Positions 4,976 to 16,394 of a DNA stretch of 64,000 bases are shown here, in pieces; positions within the stretch are counted from its first letter, which is position 1; each line of letters starts with the position of its first letter. This stretch comes from an uncultured Desulfobacterales bacterium (GTDB taxonomy: Bacteria; Desulfobacterota; Desulfobacteria; Desulfobacterales; B30-G6), in NCBI GenBank assembly GCA_964633115.1, contig CAZWEO010000002.1:7935-71934 (forward strand), written 5' to 3'. The notes below the pieces were generated by a model that saw only the letters and a program-made list of their open reading frames with translations, was not told where the DNA came from and did no database searches. A program made the position numbers and the translations under genes.

Positions 4976-5010
4976 GTTGTCGCAACTCAATCGTGGAGCA
5001 ATTTTATTTT

Positions 5011-5520
5011 ATGTGGCGTGTTCCCTTAACAGTTCATATACTTTGGTTGTTAATGCGTTCGCTATGGATCCGCTTATCCAAGGCCAAATCCGGCATTAAT
5101 CTTCCAGCGGTTGCCACCCCGCCAACCACTTCACCACAAAATGCTGATGACGTGGTACACTGGTTTGACACCCTGGCCAGTGCTGCCATGTGGTTTAACC
5201 GACACCTTTGTTTTTATCGGAGCTTTGTTTTAGCAAGCATACTTCGTAAACGGGGTCTCCCCCTGGTCATAAATGTGGGCGGGCGTGGTTTGGGCTTAAA
5301 TGAGGTTAGAAAAGCGCATTGCTGGTTGACACTGGAAGATCAGCTGTTTCACGAGAAAGAAAATGCGCTTGAATTATATCCATTGGAAATGGGATATAAT
5401 CAAAACCAATCTATCCGCTATTGGATCGGTCCAGAATTGCAGGAGAGTGTCCTAAACGGTAGCCGTGTGACTAGAAACAGGTCGATCAAGCCCCTATTCC
5501 GACGTACTAAAGGTCTTTAA
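5011..5520 (+). CDS. lasso-peptide-B2-like transglutaminase-fold cysteine protease (orphan)
   Basis: RHLCFYRSFVLASILRKRGLPLVINVGG...KAHCWLTLEDQLF matches the Cys...His-x-Asp layout of McjB-C/Transglut_core3 proteins. The ORF track starts at GTG 4993; the ATG at 5011 is equally possible. Confidence 0.6.
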   Translation: MWRVPLTVHILWLLMRSLWIRLSKAKSGINLPAVATPPTTSPQNADDVVHWFDTLASAAMWFNRHLCFYRSFVLASILRKRGLPLVINVGGRGLGLNEVRKAHCWLTLEDQLFHEKENALELYPLEMGYNQNQSIRYWIGPELQESVLNGSRVTRNRSIKPLFRRTKGL

Positions 5521-7000
5521 ACTGGATTTCAACCCATTGTTTATTGCGGGTAGGTTCAGAGGAAGACGTGTCAGCATCCGAATTGATGAGCCACATTCCC
5601 ACGGCTTCAATACGTTGGGGCGCCATTCCTTTGCCAACTAAATACCCCTTTACAATATTGGCCGTGAATTCTGACATTTTTTTATTGTAACGGCGGCTGC
5701 CTTGACTCTCGGAATAGCCATTGATAGAAATTTGTAAGTCTGGATGTTTATTGAGCAAAACACTTAGATTATCGAGCGTTTCGACTCCCTCCTCACCGAT
5801 CTCACTATTGGCATCAAAATCAATTCGAATAACAACGTGTTTGTCAGGAATCTGAAGTTTATCCGAATCCATACTCGATTGAGAGGATGCGGTTTTAGGC
5901 GCTTCGGCGACAAAAGGTTCGGGTTGTGACGTTGTCACGGAAACAATTTCACTTGCATCAGCTGAATCAGGTTTAGAGAGCATTGATTCGTCTTGGGGCG
6001 TTATCGATGGACTTGATACGGTTTTACCCAAGGGCGTGTAATAATAAAGTGCGATGGCAATCCAGGCTATGATTAATACCGCCAGAATCACATAAAGCAA
6101 TTTCTCAACAAAAGCTCCTTTGTTAGGCCCAGCCGATGCTTGAATATTCTTATCTTGTTTGGGTGCAGTTTTTTTCTTTTTGGGACGGCTTTTTTGGTTT
6201 TGCAGTTTAAGCTCTCGGGCGCACTCTTTTAAGATGGCGGGTCCGATTTTTTTACTTTCTTGGGTAAAACCTGTCACCAGGGCACGGTCACAAATAACAT
6301 TGACGAGTCTTGGGTAACCATTTGAAAACCGAAAGATTTCACGGATGGCGGCCGCATTAAATATAGGTTTGCTGGCTCCGGCAATTTTAAGGCGATGGTG
6401 AACATATTGCCCGGTTTCTTTGGCTGTTAAAGGGTGCAAGTCATAGTTAACGGAAATACGTTGGCGCAAGGCGCTATTCTTGGGCTCAAGGATAATACTA
6501 TTAAATTCAATCTGACCCACAAAAAAAATATTGATCAGCTTGCTGGATTGTTTTTCGATATTGGAAAGTAGTCGGATTTCTTCTAATAATTCCTGACTGA
6601 GTCGCTGGGATTCATCAATGATCAAAAGGACTTTTTTATGCTCGCCATGGGCCTGGTTCAAGAAGCCCGTAAAGCGTTGGATGAAATCACCTTTACTGCT
6701 GAAAGACTCGCCGATTTGAAAGGAGTGGCCCAGGAAGGTGAAAAAATCAGTTTTATCAATTCCAGGATCGAGTAAGGTTGTGGCAATGATGTTCTCACCC
6801 AGTGTATTGACAAGGGCATTGATGAGGGTTGTCTTGCCGGTACCCACATCCCCGGCCAGCAGCAAAAATCCTTTGTTATCCATAAGACCGTATCGAAAAA
6901 CTGCCAAGGCCTCTTTGTGTTTTTCACCCAGCCAAAGGAATTTAGGATCCGTGCTGATTTGAAATGGTTTGCGCTCAAGTTGATAAAATGAAAGATACAT
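5507..7000 (-). CDS. ExeA/MshM-type AAA ATPase (XrtA-associated-ATPase-like) with a TM segment and a C-terminal OmpA-like domain
   Basis: The N-terminus MYLSFYQLERKPFQISTDPKFLWLGEKHKEAL...LLAGDVGTGKTT (Walker A), LLIIDESQ (Walker B) and YPRLVNVICDRAL are typical of ExeA/GspA. A TM segment (LLYVILAVLIIAWIAIALYYY) and an S/P-rich linker follow. The C-terminus INGYSESQGSRRYNKKMSEFTANIVKGYL...WVEIQF is OmpA-like. Confidence 0.8.
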   Translation of the reverse strand: MYLSFYQLERKPFQISTDPKFLWLGEKHKEALAVFRYGLMDNKGFLLLAGDVGTGKTTLINALVNTLGENIIATTLLDPGIDKTDFFTFLGHSFQIGESFSSKGDFIQRFTGFLNQAHGEHKKVLLIIDESQRLSQELLEEIRLLSNIEKQSSKLINIFFVGQIEFNSIILEPKNSALRQRISVNYDLHPLTAKETGQYVHHRLKIAGASKPIFNAAAIREIFRFSNGYPRLVNVICDRALVTGFTQESKKIGPAILKECARELKLQNQKSRPKKKKTAPKQDKNIQASAGPNKGAFVEKLLYVILAVLIIAWIAIALYYYTPLGKTVSSPSITPQDESMLSKPDSADASEIVSVTTSQPEPFVAEAPKTASSQSSMDSDKLQIPDKHVVIRIDFDANSEIGEEGVETLDNLSVLLNKHPDLQISINGYSESQGSRRYNKKMSEFTANIVKGYLVGKGMAPQRIEAVGMWLINSDADTSSSEPTRNKQWVEIQFKDL

Positions 7001-7927
7001 TTATAATTGATCCAGAAATTTAAAGTCTTTTGTTTGGGTATGTTTGGTGCCGATGGCAACAACTTCTATTTTTTGGTCCTGGGTAGTTCGATAGTACAAG
7101 CGGCCTTTATATGCAAATAGAACTTCAAAAACAGTTTCTCGGTTTTTTTTACCAAATACTTTACGTTTTATGGGCACAAGTTTGGGATCGTCATGCAATT
7201 GCAATATAATTTCCTCGGCCTTTAATTGAAGATCTGTGGTTAATGACCCAAATCCTGTGACAGCGCGATCATTCACGATCAAAGATTTATACAAGGTTCG
7301 GAATCGTTTATGATAAGTTTCGGTGGCTTTTTGTTTTTGCTTATTTAGTTCCAGTAATTTTTCTTGGTGCTGGGCTTCAGTTGACTGCAGCCGATCAATC
7401 TCTACCTGGATCTGGTTATATTCGCTTTCGGCTTTACGTGAACTCTTTTGGTAGGAAAACCAAAAGAACAAGATAGATAGGAATATATAGAAAGAAAGGA
7501 TAATAAAGGAAAGGATCTGATGCAGAACCACCGCGACTTTGACCGTAACCACAAAACCTTGGTTTAGGGCAGCGTAGTTTTCTTTGGCCACCTGCAGCGG
7601 CATTTTTTGTGGTTCCGAAGTGTCGGAATGCCCAAAAGCCGCCGGATAAATAATGGAATTTGCGGGTGTTCGAACAGTCACAACAGCCTTAACACCCCAA
7701 CCCAACACTTTTTTGGACCAAAGGTAGCGGTCGATGTTGTGAGTGATGGATTCACTGATCGTGATACTGCCGTTAAGAAGTGCTGTGGTGTCACCAATGT
7801 AAATTTCTTCAATTTCATTGGTATAACGGCCCTGGAGTTGTTGCTCGATTATCTGAATCGAGGCAATAAACAGCACCGGTGGCGACATGATGCACAGTAT
7901 CAACGTTTTTAGGGGAAAATACTTCAT
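7001..7927 (-). CDS. 2-TM membrane protein with coiled coil and C-terminal RelE/ParE-like domain
   Basis: Signal/TM segment (LILCIMSPPVLFIASIQII), a domain of about 120 aa, a second TM (ILSFIILSFYIFLSILFFWF), then a K/Q/E-rich coiled coil. The tail reads ...KAEEIILQLHDDPKLVPIKRKVFGKKNRETVFEVLFAYKGRLYYRTTQDQKIEVVAIGTKHTQTKD, matching the RelE/ParE pattern (L..nP....K.L...,..R.rvgdYRiiY.....i.v..IG.R). The stop abuts the start of the downstream gene. Confidence 0.6.
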   Translation of the reverse strand: MKYFPLKTLILCIMSPPVLFIASIQIIEQQLQGRYTNEIEEIYIGDTTALLNGSITISESITHNIDRYLWSKKVLGWGVKAVVTVRTPANSIIYPAAFGHSDTSEPQKMPLQVAKENYAALNQGFVVTVKVAVVLHQILSFIILSFYIFLSILFFWFSYQKSSRKAESEYNQIQVEIDRLQSTEAQHQEKLLELNKQKQKATETYHKRFRTLYKSLIVNDRAVTGFGSLTTDLQLKAEEIILQLHDDPKLVPIKRKVFGKKNRETVFEVLFAYKGRLYYRTTQDQKIEVVAIGTKHTQTKDFKFLDQL

Positions 7928-7933
7928 GCATGT

Positions 7934-10213
7934 TTAAAGTTGGGCTAGCGTTTCGCGTGCCTCTTGGACACCATCAAAGTTTTTGTCTAAACTAAGGGCT
8001 TTTTCGAGTTGTTTCTTCGCTTTGGGCTTATCCCCTTTCTGATAGTAAGCCATACCAAGATGGTAGTTAACGGTGGCATTGTCAGCTAACTTCTCAAGGC
8101 TGTCCTTGAATTCGCTAATGGCACTGTCATAGAGGCCTTTTTTATAATAAATCCAACCGAGAGTATCCATGACACTAGGCTCAGCGGGAAGTTGCTCTTT
8201 GGCTTTTTGGGCAAAGCCCAAGGCCTCGTCGATATTTTTATCTTGTGCCGCCAATAGATAGGCCAGATTATTAGCTGCCGGTGCAAAATCGGGGTTAATT
8301 TCTAAAGCAGCACGATAATGTTTTTCTGACATATCAAAACGCTTTTTCAAATCATAAATCGTACCCAGCATCATATTCGCGCTGGTTTGACGTGGATTTT
8401 TTTCCAGTATGGATTGATACTGCGCAATGGCCTTGTCCGGGTTATTGCCGGATAAATACATGCGCGCCAGGGCATAATAGGACCGCAGATATTCCGGGTT
8501 CGCCTCGAGGGATTTTTGAAATGCAGATTCAGCTGAGTCAGATTTTTTTTGGGCAAGATAAAGCCCCCCTTTGAGATTATATATCACGGCCTTTACAGCG
8601 GGGACGTCTGCGACTATTTGCAATTGCTGATCACATTTTTCTAAAGCTGTTGCGTATTCTTTTTTTTGGGAATGCAGCAGGATAACATTGGTAAAAACAT
8701 CCATCAGTTTTGGATTAATTTTAAGGGCCTTGTTAAAATTGGTTAGTGCCGCTTTATACTGTTTGGTTAGGCGTTGCAGCAAACCCAATCGAAAATAGCC
8801 GGTGGGATTATTAGAATCCAAGTTGATTAACTTATTGAAGTTTTCTTTGGCAGCATTGACATCTTTTTGTAGCAGTTTTGCATTACCAAGTATGAGTGTT
8901 GCTTGATAATTATTAGGGCTTAATTCAAGGATTTCAGTGCTTTCTTTTTCAGCAAGCTTCATATCGCGCTGGCGCAGATAAATTTCCGCCATGAGCAGCC
9001 TGGCTTTGATAAATCGCGGATTGGCGTCGACAGCTTTGCCGAGGGATGATTTGGCCATGTTGCTGTCACCTTTGCCAAGATAGGCCACCCCCAAGAGGTA
9101 ATGCGCGCGTGCGGCGCGTGGCTCTTCCTTGACCAGTTGATTCAGCGTATCGATAGCGCCATCAAACTGTCTGGTTTGTGCCAGCAGCTCTCCTTTTAAC
9201 AAACGGGTCGGAAAGTAGTTGGGGCGCTCGGCCAAAATTTCGGTAATGATGGCATCGGCCTTGCCCATTTCTTTTTGCTTGAGATGGAATCCGGCAATGG
9301 TGTTTTTGATTCGAATATCATCTGGTTGTTTCTCAAGTGCCTGCTTGTATAATTCCAATGCTTTTTGGGGATTCCCGGAAAATTCATAGAATCCAGCTGC
9401 TACGAGGTAGGATCGAATATTTTCGGGATCCTTATCTATAGCAACCGCATAAGATGCCTCAGCTTCTGGCATCATTTTACGTTGGGCAAAATAATTGCCT
9501 TCTTGAATCAGCAATTCAACATTGTCAGGATTCAAACGGATGGCTTGATTTAAAATGGCTTCAGCTTTTTTAAAGTCTTGTTTGCTTCTGTAGAAGTTGA
9601 AAAGAACGAGGCTTGGTTTTATATCCTTGGGATCAATGCGAGTTGCTTCGATGAGGTACTTTTCCGAAGCAGAAAGTTGCCCCTTGCGGGCGAGTATCCG
9701 CGAAAGTCCCATGTAGGCGCGTATTTGTTTGGCATCCAGTTGAATTATTCGGCGGAAGATTGACTCGGCTTCATCCAGCTTCTTATTAATGTCAAACAGA
9801 CCGGCCTTTAAAAATAGTGCATCAATGTGATCAGGGTTTTTACTAAGAAGTTTTTCAACGAGTTCCCGGGCTTGATCCGTTTGTTTGCCGAGCATGTAAA
9901 ACGTGGCCATTTTGAGCTGCGCATCGGTATTGCTGTCATCTAACTGCACAACCCGAGAATAGGATCTGAAGGCACCCTGGGAGTTGCCGAGCTTTAGATA
10001 GGTTTCCCCCAGTTTGGCATGGGCATCCACATATTCGGGATTGATTTGGACCGCATTTTTAAATTCGAGCTCAGCGCTTTTAAACTCCCCTTTATCGAAG
10101 TAAGCGCTGCCTTTTTCAAAGTGGGCCAATTTTTTCTCTTCGTCGGATGCACAACCCCATATAAACGTAAGTAATAGCATGACGCCACAAAGCATTTTCA
10201 AATAACGGTTCAT
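7934..10213 (-). CDS. TPR-repeat lipoprotein (PrsT-like / MshN-like)
   Basis: 759 aa. Lipobox LLLTFIWGC|A, then TPR repeats throughout (A..Y..LG..Y...G....A...F.kAl.l.P repeated more than 15 times). Confidence 0.85.
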   Translation of the reverse strand: MNRYLKMLCGVMLLLTFIWGCASDEEKKLAHFEKGSAYFDKGEFKSAELEFKNAVQINPEYVDAHAKLGETYLKLGNSQGAFRSYSRVVQLDDSNTDAQLKMATFYMLGKQTDQARELVEKLLSKNPDHIDALFLKAGLFDINKKLDEAESIFRRIIQLDAKQIRAYMGLSRILARKGQLSASEKYLIEATRIDPKDIKPSLVLFNFYRSKQDFKKAEAILNQAIRLNPDNVELLIQEGNYFAQRKMMPEAEASYAVAIDKDPENIRSYLVAAGFYEFSGNPQKALELYKQALEKQPDDIRIKNTIAGFHLKQKEMGKADAIITEILAERPNYFPTRLLKGELLAQTRQFDGAIDTLNQLVKEEPRAARAHYLLGVAYLGKGDSNMAKSSLGKAVDANPRFIKARLLMAEIYLRQRDMKLAEKESTEILELSPNNYQATLILGNAKLLQKDVNAAKENFNKLINLDSNNPTGYFRLGLLQRLTKQYKAALTNFNKALKINPKLMDVFTNVILLHSQKKEYATALEKCDQQLQIVADVPAVKAVIYNLKGGLYLAQKKSDSAESAFQKSLEANPEYLRSYYALARMYLSGNNPDKAIAQYQSILEKNPRQTSANMMLGTIYDLKKRFDMSEKHYRAALEINPDFAPAANNLAYLLAAQDKNIDEALGFAQKAKEQLPAEPSVMDTLGWIYYKKGLYDSAISEFKDSLEKLADNATVNYHLGMAYYQKGDKPKAKKQLEKALSLDKNFDGVQEARETLAQL

Positions 10214-10334: not shown

Positions 10335-11498
10335 TTAGGGCAAGTGATTGTCGATTTGCTGATAGAATATCCGAATCTGCTCGACTACATATTCCAGTTG
10401 CTCTTCAGAAAGTTCAGGATAAATGGGAATTGCCAGCGAACATTGTGCTGCTTTTTCAGCGTGTTTGAATTCCCCGGACTGGTAGCCCAGATTTTCAAAA
10501 CAATCCTGTAGATGCAAAGGTACCGGATAGTAAACTTCGGTTCCGATGCCTGCTTTGCTTAAAAAAGCACGCAACTCGTCTCTGCGGTCGGGTACCATAA
10601 TTACAAACTGATTATAGATGTGTCGGCCTGGTTTTTCGAGTGGTAAAATGATGCGGTCTGTTAATCCCTTTTGGTTAAAGAGGATGCGATATTTTTCAGC
10701 ATTTATTTGCCGGCCGCGAGTCCAGTCATCCAAATGTTTCAATTTTACAGATACAATGGCAGCTTGTAATGCATCCAAACGAAAATTGCCACCGATTATT
10801 TTGTGATAATATTTAGGCTTAGCACCATGACCTCTTAGAATTCGCAGGTCTGCGTCGTATTGTTCCGAATTTGTAGTAACAATACCACCGTCTCCAAAGG
10901 CACCCAGGTTTTTAGATGGAAAAAACGAAAAACATCCAAAATCTCCCATGGAACCTGCACGCAGGTCTTGGTATTCTGTACCGATGGCTTGGGCAGCGTC
11001 CTCCACCACAATCAAGCCATGTTTTTTAGCAAATTGCACGATTGGATCCATATCAGCACTCTGTCCGTATAGATGGACCGGTATAATCGCCTTAACCCGT
11101 TCTTGTTCGGCGCTGCTGAGTTTTTGCATGGTCGAATCCAGCAAATTCGGATCCATATTAAACGTAAGCGGATCAATATCAACAAAGACAGGCTTGGCAC
11201 CCAATCGTGAAATGGCACCGGCCGTAGCGAAAAACGTATACGGCGTTGTCAATACGATATCATCGCTGGAAATGTCGGCTGCCATAAGGGCGATAATGAG
11301 TGCATCTGAGCCAGATGACACACCGACAGCATAATTGGCTTTGCAATATTGGGCTATTTCTTGTTCCAAATCTGTAACTGTCTGACCAAGAATAAAATAC
11401 TGGGACTCATATACGGCTTCGGTAGCTGCTAAAATTTCATCTTTAATGGACTGGTACTGAACCTTAAGATCAAGTAGGGGTACTTTCATGGTATTCAA
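10335..11498 (-). CDS. DegT/DnrJ/EryC1/StrS-family PLP sugar aminotransferase
   Basis: 387 aa. FILGQTV..LEQEIA, GVSSGSDAL and SFFPSKNLGAFGDGG (PLP-Lys box) motifs. Confidence 0.9.
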   Translation of the reverse strand: MNTMKVPLLDLKVQYQSIKDEILAATEAVYESQYFILGQTVTDLEQEIAQYCKANYAVGVSSGSDALIIALMAADISSDDIVLTTPYTFFATAGAISRLGAKPVFVDIDPLTFNMDPNLLDSTMQKLSSAEQERVKAIIPVHLYGQSADMDPIVQFAKKHGLIVVEDAAQAIGTEYQDLRAGSMGDFGCFSFFPSKNLGAFGDGGIVTTNSEQYDADLRILRGHGAKPKYYHKIIGGNFRLDALQAAIVSVKLKHLDDWTRGRQINAEKYRILFNQKGLTDRIILPLEKPGRHIYNQFVIMVPDRRDELRAFLSKAGIGTEVYYPVPLHLQDCFENLGYQSGEFKHAEKAAQCSLAIPIYPELSEEQLEYVVEQIRIFYQQIDNHLP

Positions 11499-12886
11499 CT
11501 CTCCATTTGATGGATAATAATGAGTAATGCGTCTTGATCGCTGTCATTTTTTATCAGGTATGCCGATGGCGTGTCCATGGATACCGAAAAGCCTGTGCCC
11601 AGTATCTGGTCTACCTGATTGTAGCCAAGCCGGCAGTCACCGGTCAATATATTAATATATACACGACCCTTAGGAGCCGGATCGCATGTGTAGGTTTTAC
11701 CGGGTTTTATTGTAACCCGGATGACAGTTTCATTTGCTGATTTCTCCAGAAATTTGACACTACCCCAGGCGTTTTTTTCTGAAAGGTGTGCCCGATATTC
11801 TGGACGGTTTTGCTGTTTTAAGCGCGTGACAATTTCTTTGACATCACGACTGGTTTCCAGATTAGAAACAAATACCGCATCAGGTGTTTCCACCAGAACG
11901 ATGTCGGAAAGATCGTTGGATGTAACCAATCGGCTTTTTGAAAACAACAAACTATTGTGTGTATTCTGGCAAAGCACATCCCCCAACAAAGCATTGCCAT
12001 TCTCATCCTTGGGCAGGTATTCATGCAAAGACTTCCAGGAACCGACATCACTCCATCCAAATTCGGATGGAAGTACGACCCCATTTAGTGTCTTTTCCAT
12101 GATGGCTACATCGAAGGCCAAATTTTGCAGACACGCATAGGCGTCAATGGAAATGGGCTCTCCCATGTTAACGATAGCTTCCATTTGGGTGAACATTTTA
12201 GGTTGGTGAACCTGAAATTCATTTATAATTGCGGAACCACTAAATGCAAACATACCGCTATTCCAAAAAAAATTTCCAGCGTCGATGTAGCTTTGGGCGG
12301 TTTTAAGGTCAGGTTTTTCAACAAAACGCTTGATTTTTAAACCACCATCGGTAACCGGGATACTCCCTTCGATATAGCCATAACCGGTTTCGGGATATTC
12401 TGGCTTGATGCCAAACGTAACCAGGTTGCCTTTGATTGCCAGTTGGGTTGCCTGTGCAATCCGGTGGTGAAACTGGGTAATATCTGCAATGACATGATCA
12501 GCGGGAAATATAAAAAATATTGCATCACTAATTTTGTTATCAGCGAGAATTTTAAGAACAGCTAACAGGATGGCTGGCGCAGTGTTACGGCCAACAGGCT
12601 CACCGATTATTTTATCCTGGGGTGTGATACCCAGGGCGGCCAAATGATCAGCGGAATCCAGACGATGGTCTTGGCCACACACTATCAGCACGTTATCTGT
12701 ATTCAAGGCTGGCGATAGTCGCTGGATGGTTTCCTGCAGAAGCGACAAGCGGCTGCCAAACGCAGCCAGTTGTTTGGGCGCCTGGTTCCGTGAAACCGGC
12801 CATAGACGGGTACCGGATCCACCGGCCAGCAGAACTGGAAACACCGCTAAACCATTGCTTAAAGGTTTAGGCTCATCATTTACCAT
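11495..12886 (-). CDS. manC: mannose-1-phosphate guanylyltransferase / mannose-6-phosphate isomerase
   Basis: VLLAGGSGTRLWPVSR nucleotidyltransferase motif, EKP..., and a C-terminal cupin. The ATG at 12886 (MVNDEPK) is preferred; the ORF-track start at 12988 would run 110 nt into dnaE. Confidence 0.9.
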   Translation of the reverse strand: MVNDEPKPLSNGLAVFPVLLAGGSGTRLWPVSRNQAPKQLAAFGSRLSLLQETIQRLSPALNTDNVLIVCGQDHRLDSADHLAALGITPQDKIIGEPVGRNTAPAILLAVLKILADNKISDAIFFIFPADHVIADITQFHHRIAQATQLAIKGNLVTFGIKPEYPETGYGYIEGSIPVTDGGLKIKRFVEKPDLKTAQSYIDAGNFFWNSGMFAFSGSAIINEFQVHQPKMFTQMEAIVNMGEPISIDAYACLQNLAFDVAIMEKTLNGVVLPSEFGWSDVGSWKSLHEYLPKDENGNALLGDVLCQNTHNSLLFSKSRLVTSNDLSDIVLVETPDAVFVSNLETSRDVKEIVTRLKQQNRPEYRAHLSEKNAWGSVKFLEKSANETVIRVTIKPGKTYTCDPAPKGRVYINILTGDCRLGYNQVDQILGTGFSVSMDTPSAYLIKNDSDQDALLIIIHQMES

Positions 12887-15800
12887 AATAGGTCCTCTTT
12901 GGTTGCTGCAACGATCCAGCTTTGCTGCAAACACTCTCATAGGCCTGGTAACCCAGACAAGCGTTGACTGCCTTACGTAAATCCCCACTGGGATGCAATT
13001 GAAAAGGTTCTGGTAGGGCGATGATTGCTTCAGCCATCTCGGGTGCTTTTACGTGCAGAAAAACCTCACAAGCGCCTCGGTGGTTTTTGACTACCTGTTG
13101 AAGGGATTCAAGTTGATCGCGGCCTGTGTTGTTTGTTTCCAGATTGATGTGGATGCTGACCGTCCAGATTTCTTCTGCTTTTTGGATGGGTACAATATGG
13201 TTGGCCAACAATTTGACAGTGTTTTCCTCTTTCTGGATTTGGCCATCCACCAGAATGGCATTGTCAGCGATCAACAGATGATGGATTTCGGCATATAGGG
13301 ATGAAAAAACTACCATCTCAAAGGAGCCGTTTAAATCCTCCACGGATACAAAAGCCATCAGATCACCTCTTTTGGTGGTGATGGTTTTGATATTTCGAAT
13401 CATACCGGCCAAACGCACGCCTGTGTTGTCGTCCAGTTCTTTCAGGGTCAAGGTCTCGGCTGTGGCAAACTTGTCGATAATCGTATTGTACCGATTAAGT
13501 GGGTGACCAGTGATATAAAATCCCAGCGCCTCCTTTTCAAATGCCAAAAGCTGTCTTTCCTCCCACTCTTCGATGTCAGGCAGTGGTGGCAAATTGATAC
13601 TGGGGGCATCGGCAGCCGATCCAAACAGACATATCTGTGGATCTGCTTTTTCCCGCTGTACGCGCTGACCATATTCGAGGATTTCGTCCAGCCCCCCTGT
13701 GAGCTGCGATCGTTTCAAATCCAGGGAGTCAAAAGCACCGCTTTTAATCAGGCTTTCAAGCACGCGCCGATTGACTCGCCGCAAATCGACCCGTTCGCAG
13801 AAATCAAAAATGGAAGCAAACGGTTGTTCCTCACGATATTCGAGGATAGATTCAATAGCACCTTCACCGACATTTTTTACGGCGGCTAGACCAAAGCGAA
13901 TGCTATCTCCGATGACCACGAATTCTTTGCTACTCTCGTTAATATCCGGTGGCAGAACTGGTATGTTGTGCCCCTTGCACTCGGATATGTACTTAACCAC
14001 GCCATCGGATGAGTTCATTTCACTGGTTAGCAAAGCCGCCATGAACTCTACTGGAAAGTGTGCTTTTAAAAAGGCGGTTTGGTAGGCTATCAAAGCATAG
14101 GCGACGCTGTGTGACTTATTAAATCCATAACCGCCAAACTTGGAAATGAGACCAAATATTTCCCCGGCCTTGTCGGCAGGAATTCCGTTCTCAACAGCCC
14201 CATCCACAAATCGTTTGTGGTGTTTTGCCATGATTTCTGGTATCTTTTTACCCATGGCTTTCCGGAGATCGTCAGCCTCAGACATTTTATAATTGGCCAG
14301 AACACCGGCGATTTTCATGACCTGTTCCTGGTAGACAATAACGCCGTAAGTCTCCTTGAGGATAGATTCCAATTCAGGAACCAGGTATCGAACTTCCTTG
14401 CGTCCATGCTTGCGTTGGACAAAATCGGTCACCATACCGCTATCCAATGGGCCCGGTCGGTATAATGCTACCAGGGCGATGACGTCATCGAAAGTTTCCG
14501 GGCGCAGACGGATCAGCAAATCTTTCATCCCCGAGCTTTCCAATTGAAACACACCGGTAGTGTCTCCCGAACAAAGCAGCGCATAGGTGGCGGGGTCATC
14601 CATTTTCAGGTTGTCGATGTCAAGGGATGTTTTCCCTTGGCGAGCGATCATATCGAGTGCGTTGGCGATGACCGTTAGATTGCGAAGACCAAGAAAATCA
14701 AACTTGACGAGGCCAATTTTTTCGACGATTTTCATGTCAAATTGGGTTACGACTTCATCCTTTTTGCCCTGGAATAGAGGTAGGTATTCTACCAAGGGTC
14801 TGTCGGAGATGACCACACCGGCAGCGTGAGTGGATGCATGCCTCGGCAAACCCTCCAGTACACGCGAGACTTGAATCAACTCGGCAACATCTGGGTTTTG
14901 TTTGGCAAGTTCCCGTATTTTTGGTTCCTGCTCCAGGGCATCGTCCAAGCTGATATTCAATACATCTGGAACCATTTTGGCGATGCGATCCACTTCTTGC
15001 AGGGGGATATCCAAGGCCCGACCTACATCCCGGATAACAGCCCGGGTTTTGAGTTTTCCAAATGTGATGATTTGGGCGACACGCTCACCGCCGCCATATT
15101 TTTCGACCACATATTTAAAAACCTGTTCGCGACCATTGATGCAAAAATCCACATCGATGTCGGGCATACTTTTCCGAGCTGGATTTAAAAAGCGTTCAAA
15201 GATGAGGCCGTATTGAATCGGATCGAGGCCGGTTATACCTAAAGAATAGGCCACCAGGCTACCTGCCGCGGAGCCCCTACCCGGCCCCACGGGGATGCCA
15301 TGGGATTTGGCATACTGGATAAAATCGGCGACGATTAAGAAATAGCCCGGAAATCCCATTTTCTTGATCAGACCGATTTCATGGTCGAGTCGCTGCTCGT
15401 ATAAAGATACGTCGATATCCGGATTCTTTTCAATAAGACGCTTGATGATAGCATGGAAGCCATCCCGGGTTTTTTGTTCAAACAGCTCTGATTCGGTGAT
15501 CTTTTGGGGCGTCTCAAATTTGGGGAAGTGGTAGGTCTTGAAATCAAAATCTACCTGACAGCGGCCTGCAATTTGAACTGTGTTGGCCAAAGCATCTGGA
15601 TGGTCCTTGAAATAGGCAGCCATTTCCGGTTTGGATTTGTAATACAGCTGATTGGTGCCAAATTTGAGTCGGTTGGACATTTTAACGGTTTTGCCGGTCT
15701 GGATGCACAGCAGCACATCATGGGCCTTCACATCATCTCTATCCAGGTAATGACAATCATTGGAAGCTACCAAAGGAATTGAGAGGCGTTGACTCATGTC

Positions 15801-16394
15801 ATATAAAGCCTCATTGACCAATTCTTGTTTATCAATGCCATTGTTTTGAACTTCGAGATAGAAATTACCCTCGCCCAACATCTGGCAATATTGTTTTGCC
15901 GCATTATCGGCTTGCTCCAGATTTCCGGCAGCGATCAATTTGGGTATTTCACCTTGCAGACAGGCAGAAAAACCAATTAAACCCTGACTGTTCTGCAGAA
16001 GCAGCTCTTTGTCGATGCGCGGTTTATGGTAAAAGCCTTCCAGGCGGGCTGTTGATACGAGCTTGCAGAGATTTTGGTAGCCCTGGTTGTTTTCGGCCAG
16101 CAAAATCAGGTGTGAAATTCCTTTGTGATCCAATGGGGTTTTATCCCGCAAGGTGCGCGGAGCAACATAACACTCACAGCCGATTACCGGCTTAATATTC
16201 GCGGCCAAAGCTTTTTGATAAAATTCGATGCAACCGAACATGGTGCCGTGATCGGTAATGGCCACGGTGTCCATGCCAAGTCTGGTCGAGCGCTTGAACA
16301 GCTCATCAACACGGATGGCGCCATCCAACAAGCTGTATTGTGTGTGAACGTGTAGGTGTACGAAGTCAGGGATGGTTTCGGTCATTGTTTCCAA
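12876..16394 (-). CDS. dnaE: DNA polymerase III alpha subunit
   Basis: 1172 aa. PHP domain FVHLHVHTQYSLLDGA, then the palm/fingers and OB-fold pattern of DnaE. Confidence 0.97.
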   Translation of the reverse strand: METMTETIPDFVHLHVHTQYSLLDGAIRVDELFKRSTRLGMDTVAITDHGTMFGCIEFYQKALAANIKPVIGCECYVAPRTLRDKTPLDHKGISHLILLAENNQGYQNLCKLVSTARLEGFYHKPRIDKELLLQNSQGLIGFSACLQGEIPKLIAAGNLEQADNAAKQYCQMLGEGNFYLEVQNNGIDKQELVNEALYDMSQRLSIPLVASNDCHYLDRDDVKAHDVLLCIQTGKTVKMSNRLKFGTNQLYYKSKPEMAAYFKDHPDALANTVQIAGRCQVDFDFKTYHFPKFETPQKITESELFEQKTRDGFHAIIKRLIEKNPDIDVSLYEQRLDHEIGLIKKMGFPGYFLIVADFIQYAKSHGIPVGPGRGSAAGSLVAYSLGITGLDPIQYGLIFERFLNPARKSMPDIDVDFCINGREQVFKYVVEKYGGGERVAQIITFGKLKTRAVIRDVGRALDIPLQEVDRIAKMVPDVLNISLDDALEQEPKIRELAKQNPDVAELIQVSRVLEGLPRHASTHAAGVVISDRPLVEYLPLFQGKKDEVVTQFDMKIVEKIGLVKFDFLGLRNLTVIANALDMIARQGKTSLDIDNLKMDDPATYALLCSGDTTGVFQLESSGMKDLLIRLRPETFDDVIALVALYRPGPLDSGMVTDFVQRKHGRKEVRYLVPELESILKETYGVIVYQEQVMKIAGVLANYKMSEADDLRKAMGKKIPEIMAKHHKRFVDGAVENGIPADKAGEIFGLISKFGGYGFNKSHSVAYALIAYQTAFLKAHFPVEFMAALLTSEMNSSDGVVKYISECKGHNIPVLPPDINESSKEFVVIGDSIRFGLAAVKNVGEGAIESILEYREEQPFASIFDFCERVDLRRVNRRVLESLIKSGAFDSLDLKRSQLTGGLDEILEYGQRVQREKADPQICLFGSAADAPSINLPPLPDIEEWEERQLLAFEKEALGFYITGHPLNRYNTIIDKFATAETLTLKELDDNTGVRLAGMIRNIKTITTKRGDLMAFVSVEDLNGSFEMVVFSSLYAEIHHLLIADNAILVDGQIQKEENTVKLLANHIVPIQKAEEIWTVSIHINLETNNTGRDQLESLQQVVKNHRGACEVFLHVKAPEMAEAIIALPEPFQLHPSGDLRKAVNACLGYQAYESVCSKAGSLQQPKRTYYGK

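Follow-up and report, generated by a model that had tools for sequence, protein, structure and literature searches.

What does a RelE/ParE toxin fold do at the cytoplasmic end of a membrane protein that has no antitoxin beside it? RelE/ParE domains have nearly always been studied as small mobile toxins that are restrained by antitoxins. The gene examined here encodes a 308-residue membrane protein and lies in a 64,000-nucleotide stretch of DNA from an uncultured Desulfobacterales bacterium (contig CAZWEO010000002.1; this whole stretch is hereafter the window). An earlier note on this DNA had described the protein and quoted its C-terminal peptide, and we recovered the same open reading frame (ORF) and the exact peptide at 7001..7927 on the minus strand. 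We found that the domain at the C-terminus is modelled with a RelE-type fold, that a coiled coil links it to two predicted transmembrane helices, and that this architecture is kept across a family that appears to be vertically inherited in Desulfobacterales. Our preferred reading, to which we give a probability of about 0.4, is that of a receptor-like inner-membrane protein whose RelE-type output, a translation inhibitor or mRNA interferase, would be gated in cis as in the effector Cami1.

We modelled the C-terminal domain with AlphaFold2 from an alignment of 45 sequences over the last 109 residues and obtained a predicted local distance difference test score (pLDDT) of 90.9 and a predicted template modelling score (pTM) of 0.84. 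The elements follow one another as linker helix, strand, helix, helix, short strand, three long strands and C-terminal helix (strands E and helices H in 109-residue numbering: E17-19, H21-28, H32-47, E56-59, E66-72, E76-82, E88-95, H96-108). The model thus contains the strand, the helical hairpin, the antiparallel sheet of three to four strands and the C-terminal helix that define the RelE/ParE superfamily fold. In a Foldseek search against the PDB, RelE, YoeB, YafQ, ParE and HigB toxins made up virtually all of the top 30 matches (best E = 1.1e-3, probability ~1.0, target-normalised template modelling (TM) scores of 0.65-0.72, identity 10-20%). Among them were M. tuberculosis RelE1 and RelE2, an archaeal RelE, Thermus RelE, YafQ, YoeB, ParE2, HP0894, HP0892, HigB2 and the CARF-RelE protein Cami1 bound to the 70S ribosome (8phj_X, rank 28, TMq 0.57). 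The best TM-scores came mostly from the mRNA-cleaving members (RelE, YoeB, YafQ); of the three ParE structures, two scored lower. Against BFVD, the top match was a phage "cytotoxic translational repressor" (E = 1.6e-4). Since the PDB E-values are borderline (~1e-3), the fold argument rests on the consistency of the match list.

The sequence searches gave a different result. No toxin family of Pfam or NCBIfam (PF05016 or others) was reported for the protein even at E<=10, an hmmsearch of the PDB sequences with the family profile returned no match, and hhalign found no similarity to E. coli RelE or YoeB when each was used as a single sequence. Against an alignment of the E. coli RelE family, hhalign reached a probability of 4.7% (P = 0.0085) and aligned only the first strand and two helices; this template alignment was shallow (all members >=68% identical), which makes it a weak test and not equivalent to a real HHpred run. 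The RelE/ParE fold that the earlier note had read into the last ~100 residues is therefore borne out by the AlphaFold2 model and by both Foldseek lists, and the profile comparison that the note had also proposed brought no match. We consider the predicted fold solid, and structural comparison alone makes common ancestry with RelE/ParE proteins likely.

Conservation within the domain was computed over 137 non-redundant domains, filtered to <75% identity. Fifteen residues were 96-100% conserved (R208, Y213, K214, E238, E239, R255, K256, E268, F271, G275, R276, Y278, G293, K295 and Q298), five of them at 99-100% (E268, R276, Y278, K295 and Q298), and the window copy retains all fifteen. A conserved juxta-domain helix, KRFxTLYK, was counted with the domain. 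Along the strands, hydrophobic residues (F267, V269, F271, L277, Y279) alternate with polar or invariant ones (E268, R276, Y278), and because of this alternation the latter three are predicted to be exposed on the sheet's open face, the side on which mRNA is bound in RelE-type enzymes. Residues were matched to RelE in a hand alignment that was anchored on secondary structure and made against the verified E. coli RelE sequence. In that alignment R276 falls at RelE R61 ("KGRLYY" paired with RelE "GYRLVY", the "GxYRxxY" position) and K295 at RelE R81 ("IGTKHTQ" paired with RelE "VGKRERS", the "vGxR" position). Glutamate, arginine, tyrosine, lysine and glutamine are residue types that we take to be those of the YoeB, MqsR and RelE active sites. 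Because the active sites of YoeB, MqsR and YafQ consist of different residue sets, the conservation pattern is compatible with a divergent active site, and it does not prove one. The domain is basic (isoelectric point 9.77), and its mean column identity was 75% versus 61% for the N-terminal part; being far more conserved than the rest of the protein would fit a very conserved target such as the ribosome.

The remainder of the protein places this domain in the cytoplasm. A short N-terminus (MKYFPLK), predicted to be cytoplasmic, precedes the first transmembrane helix, and a basic stretch (YQKSSRK) directly follows the second, in agreement with the positive-inside rule. Because basic residues lie before the first helix and after the second, residues ~28-137 are predicted to be periplasmic and everything after residue 158 cytoplasmic; the lysines and arginines that flank the helices on their cytoplasmic sides thus predict a cytoplasmic location for the coiled coil and the C-terminal domain. 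AlphaFold2 modelled the N-terminal 165 residues (pLDDT 79.7) as two long helices that bracket a small alpha/beta domain. This periplasmic domain carries several motifs that are conserved in the homologue alignments (YIGDT, NID, G78, YP and ENY..LN.G), and Foldseek found no significant match to it in the PDB, the best hits being periplasmic domains of sensor kinases (CitA, dCache, CusS; E = 1.8-2.6). The segment after the second helix is proline-free and rich in lysine, glutamate, leucine and glutamine, and a full-length homologue (P0014) keeps the heptad register over ~90 residues of coiled coil. Hydropathy, modelled helices and heptad register therefore agree with the earlier description of the domain as the cytoplasmic end of a two-helix, coiled-coil membrane protein. 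The order of transmembrane helix, periplasmic domain, transmembrane helix, coiled coil and output is the usual layout of sensors and transmembrane receptors.

We recovered 672 homologues at E<=1e-3 from a search of 5.8 billion proteins; nearly all were 365-399 residues long and none had a Pfam annotation. The family norm is ~382 residues (homologues ~377-385 residues versus 308 in the window). A profile of the C-terminal domain, searched against 1.84 billion cluster representatives, retrieved 218 proteins (50% identity clusters). Nearly all full-length proteins among the 150 listed of these 218 were 340-430 residues long (one had 541), with the domain at the extreme C-terminus, and the shorter entries look like gene fragments. 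No free-standing relative of the domain was evident among those 150, and distant stand-alone toxins are possible among the 68 weakest matches. A scan of bacteria and archaea with one genome per species found the family in 207 genomes. The 80 loci that we retrieved from these were almost all from Desulfobacterales and included Desulfosarcina variabilis, Desulfosarcina widdelii, Desulfonema magnum, Desulfotignum, Desulfatibacillum, Desulfatirhabdium and Desulfosudis; the first three are complete isolate genomes with the same architecture. The family appears to be order-wide in Desulfobacterales and vertically inherited. The earlier note had allowed for a frameshift that joined a membrane protein to an ordinary toxin; we ruled out such a fusion artefact, as the architecture is continuous in the 218 clusters and the 207 species genomes.

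A divergent high-GC branch shows the same layout of transmembrane helix, periplasmic domain, transmembrane helix, coiled coil and C-terminal domain. Its representative L085 (L085:8001-9245) has a longer cytoplasmic N-terminal tail and the motif "RRKVGGLP...FELGFAGKGRIYY...VGAKNTQ". No TPR gene adjoins the family member there; one flank carries GT4 glycosyltransferases and methyltransferases, and the opposite flank carries a response regulator, a PAS histidine kinase and two sigma-54 response regulators. In one metagenome-assembled genome (L037:5930-8327) the family member is represented by two adjacent ORFs of 232 and 332 residues, a split that is likely to be a frameshift, a pseudogene or an assembly error.

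We examined gene neighbourhoods in 85 loci, comprising 80 from the genome scan, four from a protein look-up and the window itself; upstream counts refer to the 68 loci with enough upstream sequence and downstream counts to 69 loci. In 55 of the 68, the gene immediately upstream is a PrsT-like TPR gene on the same strand. In the window this TPR protein has a lipobox-like N-terminus (...FIWGC) and many TPR repeats, and it scored 404.6 bits against the PrsT model TIGR02917 (cut-off 312.2; its counterpart in L002 scored 480.4 bits). In eight further loci, all Desulfotignum, the upstream position is taken by an AMIN-domain protein of ~630 residues. At the Desulfotignum loci L014, L016, L017, L019-L023 and L030 (e.g. 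L020:5373-7178), the upstream protein has ~600-700 residues and its N-terminal AMIN domain is the only recognisable one, so a TPR identity was rejected for it; a convergent gene for a patatin-like phospholipase that binds cyclic nucleotide monophosphates (cNMP) lies downstream.

On the downstream side, the window protein combines an AAA_22 ATPase domain (PF13401, 6.3e-23), a hydrophobic segment and an OmpA-like peptidoglycan-binding domain (PF00691, 4.2e-10), and it scored 255.8 bits against TIGR03015, below the cut-off of 324.5. An ATPase with an OmpA-like domain comes next downstream in 25 of the 69 loci; the spacer is 0-2 nucleotides in 10 of the 25, and the genes overlap in three more. The constant partner is thus the PrsT-type TPR lipoprotein rather than the ATPase. 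Other recurrent neighbours were ribosomal protein S6, an AmiC-like amidase and sigma-54 response regulators. The kinases and sigma-54 regulators found nearby were rejected as PrsK and PrsR, with scores below the cut-offs of both models.

No antitoxin-like gene was found in the window locus or among the recurrent neighbours of the 80 related loci. The spacers to the flanking genes of the window (6 and 0 nucleotides) leave no room for a small antitoxin ORF, so the earlier statement that the gene has a TPR lipoprotein and an ATPase gene for neighbours and no antitoxin gene agrees with what we found. Neither an adjacent small antitoxin gene nor a fused antitoxin domain, either of which would mark a type II toxin-antitoxin system, was present in the window or the 80 loci. 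CRISPR-related genes were likewise absent from the recurrent neighbours of the loci analysed.

Two known proteins serve as precedents for an antitoxin-free RelE domain gated in cis, which makes such an arrangement plausible here. Cami1 is a CARF-RelE effector of type III CRISPR systems that is activated by cyclic tetra-adenylate (cA4) and cleaves A-site mRNA (PMC11229360; PDB 8phj). In Cami1 (PMC11229360), and by our proposal in the present family, a RelE-family domain is attached by its N-terminus to the C-terminal end of a larger dimeric sensor and is controlled in cis with no antitoxin; dimerisation and gating are the proposed parts on our side. The tethered RelE domain of Cami1 still enters the ribosomal A site (PMC11229360). 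Unlike the proteins studied here, with their two transmembrane helices, periplasmic domain, coiled coil, PrsT context and hypothetical catalysis, Cami1 is soluble, senses cA4 through its CARF domain and is encoded in CRISPR loci; we found no match to CARF or any other Pfam domain in the window protein and no type III CRISPR context.

The second precedent, ToxM/ToxR, is a membrane-anchored BECR toxin with its antitoxin (Gerdes 2025, mBio, PMC11980606). ToxM also fuses a BECR/RelE-fold domain to a membrane anchor; its toxin-like part is cytoplasmic and a further domain is periplasmic. It has, however, an N-terminal BECR domain, a single central transmembrane region, a C-terminal periplasmic domain and an upstream RHH/HTH (ribbon-helix-helix or helix-turn-helix) antitoxin, ToxR, whereas the order is reversed in the present family, which has two transmembrane helices, a long coiled coil and no ToxR-like gene. 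The Pfam toxin models from which the ToxM study started gave no match to the window protein.

Compared with canonical RelE, YoeB and YafQ toxins (9g12_B, 1wmi_A, 3g5o_B, 4q2u_B), the domain shares the fold, the order of elements, the basic character and, in the hand alignment, a conserved arginine and lysine at the R61 and R81 positions, respectively. Those toxins are free proteins of ~85-95 residues with an adjacent antitoxin, fast-evolving and often carried on mobile elements; the present domain is instead the highly conserved C-terminus of a membrane protein, with no antitoxin, 10-20% identity and no detectable profile similarity to them. The neighbours have known relatives too. The upstream protein belongs above cut-off to the PrsT family of the PrsK/PrsR/PrsT system (PMC1569441), and the downstream one has the layout of ATPase, transmembrane segment and peptidoglycan-binding domain known from GspA/ExeA-GspB/ExeB; neither system has a described component that resembles the protein between them. 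PrsT was defined through phylogenetic profiling with PEP-CTERM regulation (Haft 2006, PMC1569441) and is genetically required for Aquincola floc formation (PMC9850573).

From this layout and these analogies we propose the following mechanism. The periplasmic domain between the two transmembrane helices would probably contact the PrsT-type TPR lipoprotein encoded upstream, with the AMIN-domain protein in its place in Desulfotignum. The long and probably dimeric cytoplasmic coiled coil would relay the signal inward to the output module, the RelE-type (BECR-fold) domain, which may act on translating ribosomes or mRNA under control in cis and independently of an antitoxin. The status of the envelope, of exopolysaccharide or of aggregation would thereby be coupled to translation near the membrane. 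A more specific version is that this is the first transmembrane receptor with a ribosome-dependent RelE-type mRNA endonuclease as its output, in which an envelope signal read through PrsT would lead to mRNA cleavage or stalling near the membrane with no antitoxin, second messenger or transcription factor involved, as a core and vertically inherited route of Desulfobacterales; we regard this version as doubtful.

Several observations weigh against a gated toxin output. A sequence-level link to any RelE/ParE family is absent in the searches that we ran, RelE K52, K54 and Y87 have no like-for-like counterpart in the hand alignment, and a three-dimensional cluster of the invariant residues is a prediction and not a measurement. 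In its behaviour the family resembles a core gene passed on vertically and not the usual toxin-antitoxin or defence genes, and PADLOC matched no defence-system model. An antitoxin-less toxin that is constitutively present needs tight inhibition in cis, which we postulate here. Finally, translational coupling to the ATPase gene in one third of the loci fits a structural role equally well.

Such a role is the main alternative. The RelE fold would be domesticated and non-catalytic and would mediate protein-protein interactions within a regulatory complex or an assembly that spans the envelope. Its three parts would be the PrsT-type TPR lipoprotein (periplasmic or in the outer membrane), the two-helix protein itself and the ExeA-like ATPase, anchored to peptidoglycan by its OmpA-type domain. 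The two-helix protein could then be a partner of the ATPase as GspB/ExeB is, or could sequester a cytoplasmic regulator at the membrane in an anti-sigma-like manner, in exopolysaccharide or PEP-CTERM export or in aggregation. The tight packing of the three window genes fits this explanation, as do the ATPase gene that follows at a distance of mostly a few nucleotides or less in the 25 loci, the TPR partner that passes the PrsT cut-off together with the floc formation phenotype of PrsT (PMC9850573), and the glycosyltransferases and sigma-54 two-component regulators that recur nearby. Core-gene-like conservation and absence of an antitoxin are what would be expected of a non-toxic domain, and the RelE catalytic lysines are not kept in the hand alignment. 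Against it, about two thirds of the loci have no such ATPase in the neighbourhood, and neither Pfam nor NCBIfam reported any similarity of the protein to GspB. More near-invariant charged and polar residues also lie on the predicted active-site face than a scaffold would require, although they could be accounted for by a tight interface. We judge this explanation possible and, on balance, unlikely.

The two remaining explanations are far less probable. A tethered ParE-type domain that inhibits DNA gyrase rather than the ribosome would account for the missing catalytic lysines, which ParE also lacks, and for the ParE structures among the Foldseek matches (5cw7_F, TMq 0.56; 8c24 and 7r5a, 0.43). 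The ParE structures from Mycobacterium tuberculosis and Vibrio cholerae, however, score clearly below RelE, YoeB and YafQ, and the arginine typical of mRNA-cleaving members is invariant. With helices of 8 and 16 residues, the N-terminal hairpin is short, a feature of RelE rather than of ParE structures, and a membrane tether is a poor fit for a target in the nucleoid; we therefore hold gyrase inhibition to be very improbable. An artefact, either a frameshift-fused toxin gene or a chance or convergent alpha/beta sandwich unrelated to RelE, could be argued from the missing sequence signal, the Foldseek E-values of only ~1e-3 and the odd structure of the window copy with its 222-nucleotide deletion, and it is hardly credible given that the architecture is continuous across clusters and species genomes, complete isolates included, that the deletion is in frame and inside the coiled coil rather than at a domain boundary, that ~30 independent RelE-superfamily structures head the list (probability ~1.0, target TM up to 0.72) and that a phage RelE-type protein heads the BFVD list. 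The probability left over from all these readings belongs to functions that we have not conceived.

Sensor-fused (Cami1) and membrane-associated (ToxM) versions of RelE/ParE proteins have been recognised only recently, and multidomain and membrane-associated members are known in principle (Gerdes 2025). What is new in the present family is a different architecture with no antitoxin, an envelope context unlike that of defence systems, core-gene-like conservation and the fact that current Pfam and NCBIfam models miss it. Within its host order, an environmentally important group of sulfate reducers, its conservation resembles that of a housekeeping gene. Should the domain be active, the gated receptor would represent a new way for the state of the cell envelope to be coupled to translation, and PrsT would gain a first plausible downstream partner; should it be inactive, the family would clearly exemplify a toxin fold that envelope machinery has domesticated. 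The family merits a domain model in both cases, and cultured hosts exist in Desulfosarcina variabilis, Desulfosarcina widdelii and Desulfonema magnum.

The window copy differs from every homologue by the absence of 74 coiled-coil residues (a 74-column alignment gap). At the DNA level this is a clean in-frame deletion of 222 nucleotides with its junction at ~7331-7345, after N195, and it leaves the domains on either side intact. The segment that is deleted in the window is bounded in the full-length relative L005 by A-rich direct repeats (AAACAAAAA, coding KQK...KQKQK), which suggests that the deletion arose by replication slippage. Records of this same short protein exist for 12 contigs, and the short form is therefore probably real and not an assembly collapse. 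Assuming a rise of ~0.15 nm per helix residue, the stalk of the window copy would be ~11 nm shorter.

Table 1. Features of the membrane-protein gene and its two flanking genes in the window.
Feature	Position	Strand	Basis or remark
Whole gene, 308-aa (amino acid) membrane protein	7001..7927	-	ORF list and sequence; ATG start
Transmembrane helix 1, residues ~8-27	7847..7906	-	Kyte-Doolittle window >1.6; AlphaFold2 helix
Periplasmic domain, residues ~28-137	7517..7846	-	Alignments and AlphaFold2; predicted small alpha/beta domain, ~110 aa
Transmembrane helix 2, residues ~138-158	7454..7516	-	Hydropathy; model helix at 138-164
Cytoplasmic coiled-coil stalk, residues ~159-207	7307..7453	-	Predicted; shortened in the window copy
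C-terminal RelE/ParE-fold domain, residues 208-308	7004..7306	-	AlphaFold2, Foldseek and conservation; predicted, ~100 aa
Upstream gene, 759-aa TPR lipoprotein of the PrsT family	7934..10213	-	6 nucleotides from the membrane-protein gene
Downstream gene, 497-aa ExeA/GspA-like ATPase	5507..7000	-	Start codon abuts the stop codon of the membrane-protein gene

Further genes of the window were inspected around this block. A 175-residue ORF at 4993-5520 on the plus strand resembles transglutaminase-like or lasso-peptide B2-like proteins (PF13471, 1.7e-08; NF033537, 31.6 bits versus a cut-off of 33). The ORF and the ATPase gene converge and share 14 nucleotides at the 3' end of the latter; by tblastn, only the two closest relatives, L001 and L005, have a counterpart at this position. 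At 11495-12988 on the minus strand, the listed GTG start of a ManC-like nucleotidyltransferase overlaps the end of a DnaE-like ORF (12876-16394, minus strand) by 113 nucleotides, and the true start probably lies further downstream. The block of DnaE, ManC, DegT, TPR, membrane-protein and ATPase genes is syntenic with L001 and L005.

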